Below, piece after piece: positions 23,998 to 26,223 of a stretch of DNA of 64,000 nucleotides; the stretch's first letter is position 1, and each line of letters begins with the position of its first letter. The notes beneath the pieces are model-generated. The model saw nothing but the letters and a program-made list of their open reading frames with translations, was not told the origin of the DNA and made no database searches. Made by a program: the position numbers and the translations under genes. The stretch comes from Octopus vulgaris (Eukaryota): the NCBI GenBank assembly GCA_951406725.2, contig OX597816.1:84320001-84384000 (forward strand), given 5' to 3'.

Positions 23998-25487
23998 ACT
24001 CTCTTTCTCTTCTCTCTGTGCCTTTCTTTAACCTCTGCTAAAATTAAATTTTCAACTTTCCTCCCCTACCTTCAACTAACTTTTTTAACTACATAATAAA
24101 TACTGTGTTCCCCTTATCTAACGCCATGTACGTTTCTCTCTGCCTTTCTCCCTCTTTCTGTCTTACTCTTCGCCTTATCCTCTTTTTCTCTCCTTTTTCT
24201 TTCTGCTCTCTTTCTCCTCAGTTAATCACGTGAAAGCGATACATTTACATTCCCTCTGCTTCACGTCATGGCTGCTTCTTTCTCCCTCCCTCTATTTCTC
24301 TTTCTCTCTTTTTCTCTCTCCCGCTTTTTCTCTAATCCCGTAAAAGCGTTACTGACGGACTAAGTAACGCAATGACAAGCAGAATTATTATAAGATATTG
24401 AGTAAAAAAAAAACTGTTACGATAGATAAATTTATCGCGATGTGGGCGAGAAATCCGAGCGTTTAGTCAACTAATCTTTATAGAAGAGAAATTGTTTAAT
24501 AGTAAAATTTTCAGTCTTATCTATGGGAAACCTAGTAAATATTTTTTCTCTTACCGACAGTGTTTTTTCCAAAACCTAGTAAACAATATATGTATTAATT
24601 TCAATACATTAGATATTACTTATAAAACATAATTCATTCTCATACTAAATTCAAAAATAAAACTGGTTCTTGCTTGTAGGCGCTAATGTCAGTGAACAGG
24701 CTTTGGTTTTCTTGATACCTGTCAGTAAAATATAGAATATACCAACGCATACCAAACTGTATATTTGTACCAGAGGGAGCGCATTTCAGCGCTAAGTTGT
24801 TTACTCAATCAAAATAATAATGAATATGTCTTAAAAATCTAAGAGAACTGATCCTTGTATCCTGTTGATATTAGAACTGACACGTTGAGATCTAATTAAG
24901 TGTAATGAAGTATTATGATTGAGGACGCATATGAAATCATGAATCACAAGGTAACCTTCTTCTCAAGGTTACATAAGCAATTTCGACTTTTAAATAGTGT
25001 TTTGTTAGCACAACCTGTGTAATAAAAATATCAAGCTATATTTCTTTTTTTTTTTTTTTTTTGAAGAAACACTGAAAGTTAAATGCGTTGTTATGATGTG
25101 AAAGTCAGCAAATAAATAAACCGTTTTAGTAATTCCATAGAGTATCAATGGTTAACAACGTCTCGCTCTTCGTTGAAGCACTGCCTTGGATATATAAAAA
25201 AGAAAATTACTATTCTTGGAACTAACGAGTTTTGTTACTAACAATGGAACAATTGAAGACTGAGGTAAAACGAAAAAATAATGTTTAAATACTGGTGATA
25301 CTATCAGCTAATAACATAAAACGTCTTTAATGAGAATGTGGGAGTTACAAGATCAAGGCTGATTAATTACTTGACAAACATAAATGATCAACAAACAGCG
25401 GATCGGTTTCAATAGCATAGTTTATTCCGAATATGATATAGCTTGTAGTGTTGACGCTTCTTTTTATTTTCAATTATAATTAAAACA

Positions 25488-26073
25488 TTAATAGTTATCG
25501 CCATACATATATGGCAGTCTTATAAATATAAGACTAAAGCTGTCGCTGATTAGCTCAAAGAGGCCACCGCCTCAAGCTAGCTATTTGACACAACCTGCGT
25601 CCATTATAAACCTTCGAACAGGGGAGGTCAGCCGCTTCATCCTGCCAGTGAGACAGCTGCAGACATGTTTCAGGGTATTTGCCCTTTATCAATGCAGCGT
25701 AGTCAGTCAGACCCAGCAGGTGTCGCTACTGACTGTCCCTGTTCGAAGAATCTATTTACCTAGTTTCAGTGGAATACATCCACTTGTTTTCAATAATAGA
25801 AATATTAAAATTACTAAGTCTCTCTAAAGGAGATTACGGCTGCGTCTGTCTGACTGGCACGATGAAGCGGCTGACCTCCCCTGTTCGAAGGTTTATAATG
25901 GACGCAGGTTGTGTGTCAAATAGCTAGCTTGAGGCGGTGGCCTCTTGGAGCTAATCAGCGACAGCTTTAGTCTTATATTTATAAGACTGCCATATAAGTA
26001 TGGCGATAACTATTAATTTCCAGTAACGCTGCCGTAATCTCCTTTAGAGAGACTTAGTAATTTTTACATTTCT
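25488..26073 (-). mobile_element. Hammerhead-containing retrozyme-like insertion with internal inversion and 15-bp TSD
   Basis: TSD attataattaaaaca at 25473-25487 and 26074-26088; minus-strand near-monomer at 25488-25845 plus inverted partial copy at 25846-26073; collinear with 46126-46703. Confidence 0.85.
25656..25698 (-). ncRNA. Type I hammerhead ribozyme (U3:A8 variant)
   Basis: gctgca|TTGATAA|aggg caaata ccct|GAAA|catg|TC|tgcagc. Confidence 0.85.
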
Positions 26074-26223
26074 ATTATAATTAAAACAATTTAACATTAA
26101 TCTGATGTGCTACACTACACTTTTGTAGAGTACAAATTTATATTTCTTAAACAAGAGTATTTTTTACTGTGACTTCGAAGTTACGACCAGTTAAGCCATC
26201 GTAGGGCTGCAGTCTTGATTAAG

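Follow-up and report, generated by a model that had tools for sequence, protein, structure and literature searches.

Background

Insertions of L1 made by twin priming are recognised by a target site duplication (TSD), an inversion and microhomology at the inversion junction. In Penelope-like elements (PLEs), the accessible parts of PMC8557442 and PMC3846280 describe an inverted, 5′-truncated copy, a tail that is often found at one end only and a bias towards (TA)n, and the accessible part of PMC4209133 reports hammerhead ribozymes (HHR) with a U3-A8 core and a palindromic, dimer-dependent helix III. According to the sections of PMC11167929 at hand, target-primed reverse transcription (TPRT) in vitro by the Anolis PLE Poseidon PAc starts reverse transcription (RT) at two internal sites, by which the tail is delimited; both target strands are nicked and extended, a dimer is predicted and HHR cleavage is dispensable. 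In the same sections, the start site shows no strand difference and initiation proceeds without homology. The consulted text of PMC8557442 still describes as undefined how tandem and inverted PLE structures arise, and this is what makes the retrozyme family analysed here useful, because a short, high-copy substrate lacking an open reading frame (ORF) renders the question simply testable.

A Family of Short Repeats with a Predicted Hammerhead Ribozyme

The focal copy lies in the window (the whole stretch of 64,000 nucleotides that was analysed) and is one among more than 1,000 copies of a small ribozyme-bearing repeat. Exact matches in the 2.8-Gb animal genome amounted to 782 for a 25-nt motif and 528 for a second motif, with 0 for the reversed control. 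The length of the unit was taken as 365 nt, the period of a natural tandem at locus L005, and its positions were numbered from u1, the first base past the predicted hammerhead cut (between 25,662 and 25,661 in the focal copy). No ORF of at least 170 aa was found in the element.

The repeat unit bears a covarying type I hammerhead, predicted from motif, fold and covariation, that occupies 25,656–25,698 on the minus strand of the focal copy and is predicted to cleave. It is composed of a 6-bp stem I, a U3-A8 core (UUGAUAA), a 4-bp stem II and a 2-bp stem III with the palindrome ACAUGU. In an alignment of ten sequences hand-picked for diversity, whose relatedness can inflate the values, 96.9 % of the cells were paired and 6 pairs had changed on both sides. 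Of 214 motif matches, some of which correspond to one locus fetched repeatedly, 208 had ACAUGU, ACGCGU or ACUAGU as the stem/loop III palindrome; Rfam gave 0 matches at the gathering threshold. These features, read from the genome sequence, identify the element as a putative non-LTR retrozyme, a non-autonomous PLE.

We retrieved 258 loci, comprising the 120 top-scoring matches, which are biased to query-like copies, with the remainder taken from the first 100 position-ordered matches listed per motif plus 8 more listed matches. Copies with less than 88 % identity, shorter than 30 nt or at locus edges were left out, and filtering reduced 247 chains to 194 unique elements with 298 arms, 114 of these elements belonging to the position-ordered subset. 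Head-to-head inversions were the commonest form (101 elements), along with 92 single arms and one complex element. Dispersed partial copies dominate: the longest arm spans 944 nt, and two complete HHRs are present in 6 arms.

Structure of the Focal Copy

The sequence ATTATAATTAAAACA occurs exactly at 25,473–25,487 and at 26,074–26,088 (plus strand), and there is no third copy on either strand of the 64-kb window, confirming the perfect 15-bp TSD recognised at both ends in the preliminary description. Element bases are also matched inside the TSDs: the final base of the left one (1 nt) coincides with the element end, and the initial 5 nt of the right one double as the T end of the element. The two arms between the TSDs end 3′ at either of two family-wide sites, body site B and tail site T. 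The long arm (25,488–25,845, minus strand) is a permuted near-monomer that runs from 25,845 to 25,488, that is, from u186 to u176/177; it contains 358 nt of the 365-nt unit, has its 3′ end at B and shows a strong fold (z = −6.9). The short arm (25,846–26,073, plus strand) extends from u6 to u233 (238), with its 3′ end at T. At the head-to-head inversion junction (25,845/25,846), u185/186 is joined to u6 without microhomology in this copy, and reading the junction at u6 requires one private substitution, an A at u190 found in 0 of 141 projected arms. A putative tail of ca. 60 nt (u178–u238; 26,018–26,078, plus strand) lies between the two 3′ end sites, as delimited by the histogram of 3′ ends and by analogy with PLE tails.

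The earlier description of a near-complete monomer on the minus strand, joined to a partial unit in inverted orientation that starts at 25,846, was correct. Nevertheless, the ca. 50 bp then said to be duplicated by the inverted unit is too low: the plus arm repeats the minus arm over u6–177 (ca. 172 nt, 95.5 % identical) and over u186–238 (ca. 53 nt), leaving just ca. 8–9 nt of the plus arm unrepeated. With its B+T inversion, the focal locus is typical of the family and ordinary, and the inversion is a routine product of the retrozyme family.

The window contains further repeats. An older copy of the same retrozyme repeat, from a subfamily with ca. 79 % identity, is situated at 46,125–46,703 (plus strand) and comprises ca. 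1.5 units with an ACUAGU loop and a B end; as judged by eye, a decayed TSD of ca. 13 bp may flank it. Additionally, a 183-bp repeat in a two-copy tandem at 33,480–33,845 is presumably SINE-like.

Outer Ends, Target Site Duplications and Junctions

The 3′ ends of the 298 arms concentrate at two sites situated ca. 60 nt apart, with 125 at B and 133 at T (258 together), using windows (u166–183 for B, u228–247 for T) that were both drawn after the data were seen. Inversions with both ends classifiable paired B with T in 74 of 76 cases (p = 4e-20 versus independence), and this was also so for 48 of the 49 classifiable inversions of the position-ordered subset; at least one end was unclassified in 25 of the 101 inversions. 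A further 16 diverged loci, listed apart, contained two classifiable inversions, both B+T. The architecture, already known from PLEs as an inverted pLTR with a tail at a single end, is counted here. Our literature search, which covered few subscription papers and little older Penelope work, supplements excluded, found neither a counted B+T pairing nor a description of this retrozyme family.

DNA resembling (TA)n adjoins 170 of the 256 B/T ends, and the 3′ ends often share 1–6 nt with the target. Outside (TA)n, a TSD of at least 10 bp accompanied 14 of 19 inversions versus 1 of 22 single arms (p = 7e-6). In a few single arms, the adjacency rule may have missed an offset TSD or an inverted arm of very short length. 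The length of the listed non-TA TSDs was 12–16 bp in 14 of 19. Most inversion junctions have an overlap of 1–4 nt, and 7 of 101 are blunt.

Three loci (L162, L194, and L246) have at least 1.0–1.2 kb of 5′ flank in common (89–96 % identical), joined at u299, and differ in their 3′ ends (u203, u179, and u238, respectively); they are a cargo-plus-retrozyme chimera that seems to have been mobilised as a unit. ORF1-like frames are found near L162 and L194, and the sole zinc-knuckle match, a weak one, is in L195.

Arm 5′ Ends Relative to the Ribozyme Cut

The inversion had been tied to the ribozyme cut in the preliminary description, a claim at odds with the tabulation of breakpoints, which ran null. 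None of the 298 arm 5′ ends is located at u365, u1 or u2. Among the 164 arms of the position-ordered subset, with 5′ stops counted only beyond the selecting motif, 12 stops fell within u356–u10 versus 11.3 expected (p = 0.45); when only inversion arms were considered, there were 9 versus 6.8 (p = 0.24), and enrichment at the cut site was absent in all five windows tested (p = 0.24–0.91). That the inverted unit starts ca. 5 nt past the cut is correct as to position (u6), but such a start is no more frequent across the family than expected by chance, and the stop of the focal short arm 5 nt from the cut is due to chance. The retrozyme copies argue against a role of HHR cleavage in defining insertion boundaries in vivo, in agreement with the accessible parts of PMC11167929.

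The 5′ stops were commonest at u31–u59, a zone beside a long stem that contains the palindrome TTCGAA; within this zone, u31–45 had 17 stops versus 7.2 expected (p = 0.0013 before correction for 25 bins, marginal after). The focal long arm ends 8–9 nt short of a full turn of the unit, and a preferential stop after a full circle was considered and rejected: there are 2 arms of 345–370 nt versus 9 and 7 in the neighbouring bins, so that this near-full turn is also attributable to chance.

Template of the Two Arms

The two arms of an inversion belonged to the same subfamily in all 56 typed pairs. Rare variants were common to both arms at 0.0069 per site versus 0.0005 (33 pairs) and at 0.0030 versus 0.0002 (20 pairs), a sharing ca. 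14-fold over within-subfamily re-pairing (0 of 1,000 permutations); loci L072 and L083, which were misregistered, were excluded from the shared-variant tests. Near-private variants were shared at comparable rates, 12 times in 65 arm pairs and 11 times in 46 pairs of tandem units within an arm, and divergence was 3.4 % between tandem units of an arm and 3.8–3.9 % between arms (21 cases). The rate of stops, 0.4–1.0 % per nt, is steady out to 1,000 nt. Judging from these sequence comparisons, the arms would fit a single template haplotype read as endless, for example a circular one; the data are also compatible with a multimer of homogeneous units or with gene conversion at a later stage.

The earlier proposal that the template was circular or longer than a monomer, and that PLE-type TPRT mobilised it in trans, is supported, 188 of the 298 arms traversing an intact cut site. 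The T arms pass the B site in 62 of 66 cases and the B arms pass the next T site in 24 of 66. With 62 of 66 T arms running past B, a model with a single RNA needs strand displacement, the alternative being two RNAs from one source. A collision of two reverse transcriptases on one RNA was also considered and discarded, as stops did not clearly cluster near 60 nt (T) or 305 nt (B).

Candidate Partner PLEs

The genome contains long-ORF PLEs of at least two kinds, Hydra-like, with a CxCX5C linker (compared with the accessible text of section 11 of PMC8557442), and Neptune-like, with a 781-aa RT+GIY-YIG ORF and a Neptune-type linker; the latter is a putative clade label, read from motifs rather than from a tree. 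Loci L297–L301 belong to a young PLE family, ca. 98 % identical, in which an open frame of ca. 480 aa lies upstream of the 781-aa ORF; these loci also have a 40-nt tail and a hammerhead-like U3-A8 core. Loci L289–L296 are Hydra-like PLEs with N-rich inserts, a long-stem-II hammerhead and a tail of ca. 120 nt, and are inserted in (TA)n. The window itself includes a broken C-terminal fragment of a Hydra-like PLE reverse transcriptase (ca. 30,567–31,700, plus strand), with relatives elsewhere showing open frames of up to ca. 1,090 aa; Pfam searches of the Hydra-like ORFs and of this fragment were negative. A distant repeat (ca. 60 %) with a 373-nt period, partly tandem and partly inverted, is situated at 5,788–6,662 of L290 and may represent another retrozyme-like family; a hammerhead pattern search was negative there.

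One body end and one tail end were observed in L289 (Hydra-like) and L298 (Neptune-like), with one resolved copy each, and L293 gave no clean test. The Neptune-like end and the retrozyme have UUGAUAA and GAAACAUGU in common, and the Neptune-like family has B/T-type ends in (TA)n; the sequence similarity extends no further than this, so the Neptune-like PLE is only a candidate partner. No extended similarity to the unit was found in 13 long PLE loci (8 Hydra-like and 5 Neptune-like), nor a PLE ORF joined to a retrozyme unit in the 258 loci. A copy on C29 was examined as a possible unit joined to a PLE and rejected, since it sits inside an N-rich part of the ORF and not at its end. Six copies in this region (G000:C29:29565278–29687356) have the same flanks, five of them ca. 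9 kb apart, and are a tandem duplication carrying one insertion inside the PLE ORF.

Empty Site and Assembly

Contigs covering the focal locus were examined in four of the 24 runs listed: X1 and X4 (organism A), X2 (organism B), and X7 (organism D). No RNA run was among those listed, which is neutral as to expression. In X1, X4, and X7, a contig with a depth of 40–50 extends along the left flank and across the TSD as far as 25,487 and then carries 17, 4, and 14 letters, respectively, that do not align to the element, which indirectly suggests an empty allele. The X2 contig enters the element by 29 nt and matches a rare base at 25,507 (5 of 256 arms), suggesting that it carries the same insertion; at a depth of 3.2, it is possibly error-prone. 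Base 25,481 of the window, inside the TSD, differs in X2, X4, and X7. None of the contigs listed for the four runs bridges the internal junction (25,845/25,846). The phrase “direct evidence” of retrotransposition in the preliminary description was too strong, because the empty allele was seen only indirectly.

Proposed Mechanism and Alternative Explanations

We consider it likely that the focal copy is an ordinary insertion of a non-autonomous PLE, a non-LTR retrozyme, and that it originated as follows. A PLE protein acting in trans would nick both strands of an AT-rich target ca. 12–16 bp apart, and each nick would prime RT at an internal position of a retrozyme RNA that is multimeric or circular and has not been cleaved; one start would lie at the body site (u~177), the other at the tail site (u~238). 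The two cDNAs would halt at roughly random points, at ca. 0.5 % per nt, and their ends would be joined, usually by 1–4 nt of microhomology, resulting in a head-to-head inversion flanked by a TSD. The nicking of two strands with internal priming in trans is what we infer from the ends, pairing and variants reported above. Several observations weigh against it: none of the 13 long PLE loci is an autonomous partner similar to the unit, 25 of the 101 inversions have one or more unclassified ends, the B and T windows were defined post hoc, and the arms overrun the other site (T in 62 of 66, B in 24 of 66) without a clear stop. Additionally, shared variants could also arise by gene conversion between arms, PLE starts in vitro lack a strand difference or homology in the available sections of PMC11167929, and neither the empty allele nor the focal internal junction was seen directly.

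Other explanations bear on the same data. If the short arm had been copied up to the 5′-OH end of a ribozyme-cleaved RNA, the inversion would start at the cut; the focal arm begins at u6, a start at u1 is also readable given two substitutions, and there is a slight, non-significant excess past the cut (9 versus 6.9 in u1–u12). This is highly improbable, as no 5′ end among 298 is at u365, u1 or u2, 188 arms cross an intact cut and the five windows lack enrichment: the idea already fails across the family, and the u6 reading of the focal junction costs a single substitution. Twin priming of the L1 type, on one linear RNA with the second primer annealing just upstream of the first cDNA stop, would leave a TSD, an inversion and junction microhomology, and the focal arms do overlap by ca. 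53 nt at one end. However, the 5′ end of one arm lay 15 nt or less from the 3′ end of the other in 12 of 101 inversions versus 16.4 by chance, which refutes twin priming as a family rule, and both primings use fixed sites with arms that overlap by hundreds of nt. Mobilisation by PLE-type TPRT, as read from TSD plus inversion at the outset, is supported; L1-style twin priming, to which we give almost no credence, is not.

Self-priming or fold-back on an antisense template was proposed from junction palindromes for rotifer PLEs (in the accessible part of PMC3846280), and would account for the variants shared by the arms, with stops enriched at u31–45 beside a palindromic stem. B+T pairing is not predicted by fold-back alone, and 5′ ends no more than 20 nt apart in the unit occurred in 14 of 101 inversions versus 11.3 by chance, so we regard it as very unlikely. 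As to an assembly artefact, or a later rearrangement of two neighbouring insertions, inverted PLE structures are a known difficulty for assemblies, and none of the contigs listed bridges the internal junction. Against this, 101 of 194 copies are inverted, with scattered junctions and TSDs, the X2 contig spans the left junction and has the rare base of the focal copy, and a single TSD or a B+T pairing is not expected from two independent insertions; the chances of such an origin are minimal.

Returning to two-strand nicking with internal priming, a more specific form of it can be put forward tentatively, at somewhat less than even chances. PLE integration may be coupled: one complex, probably a dimer, would nick the strands 12–16 bp apart, with its RT sites committed to the body and tail starts of the same template, for which a retrozyme monomer in circular form, copied by rolling, is plausible. 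If so, a single step would account for the TSD of PLEs as well as for their inverted ends and the tail on one side, and there would be genomic evidence for retrozyme circles as the template of transposition. The family-level rules for B+T pairing, TSDs and a common template could help to explain PLE integration.

Comparison with Known Systems

The copies resemble the products of L1 twin priming in having a TSD, an inversion and junction microhomology; unlike in L1, there is no poly(A) or priming at the RNA 3′ end, and the adjacency rule does not hold. In common with the metazoan non-LTR retrozymes of Cervera and de la Peña (2020; PMC7229834) and Li et al. (2026; 10.64898/2026.07.22.740005), as far as described in the accessible parts of both papers, the family has a non-coding unit of ca. 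365 nt with a type I HHR per unit. It also shares with them an arrangement from monomers to short tandems, a GC content below 50 %, TSDs longer than 4 bp and co-occurring PLEs. Copies here are mostly dispersed and partial, unlike those of metazoan non-LTR retrozymes, and the fixed double 3′ ends and inversions seen here have no description in the consulted text of those two papers.

Compared with Poseidon PAc, whose starts are AC-rich and without target homology in the sections of PMC11167929 at hand, starts in this family are AT-rich with short matches to the target; the two start sites that those sections leave unlinked within one insertion are linked here. The closest agreement in architecture is with EN+ Penelope-like elements, for which the accessible parts of PMC3846280 and PMC8557442 describe head-to-head inversion, a tail at one end, variable TSDs and (TA)n or AT-rich targets, as in the retrozyme. 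Differences from these are the lack of an ORF and a tail of ca. 60 nt versus 30–40 nt in the same sources, and the pairing of ends and its linkage to TSDs, treated case by case in what is accessible of the EN+ PLE papers, are counted here.
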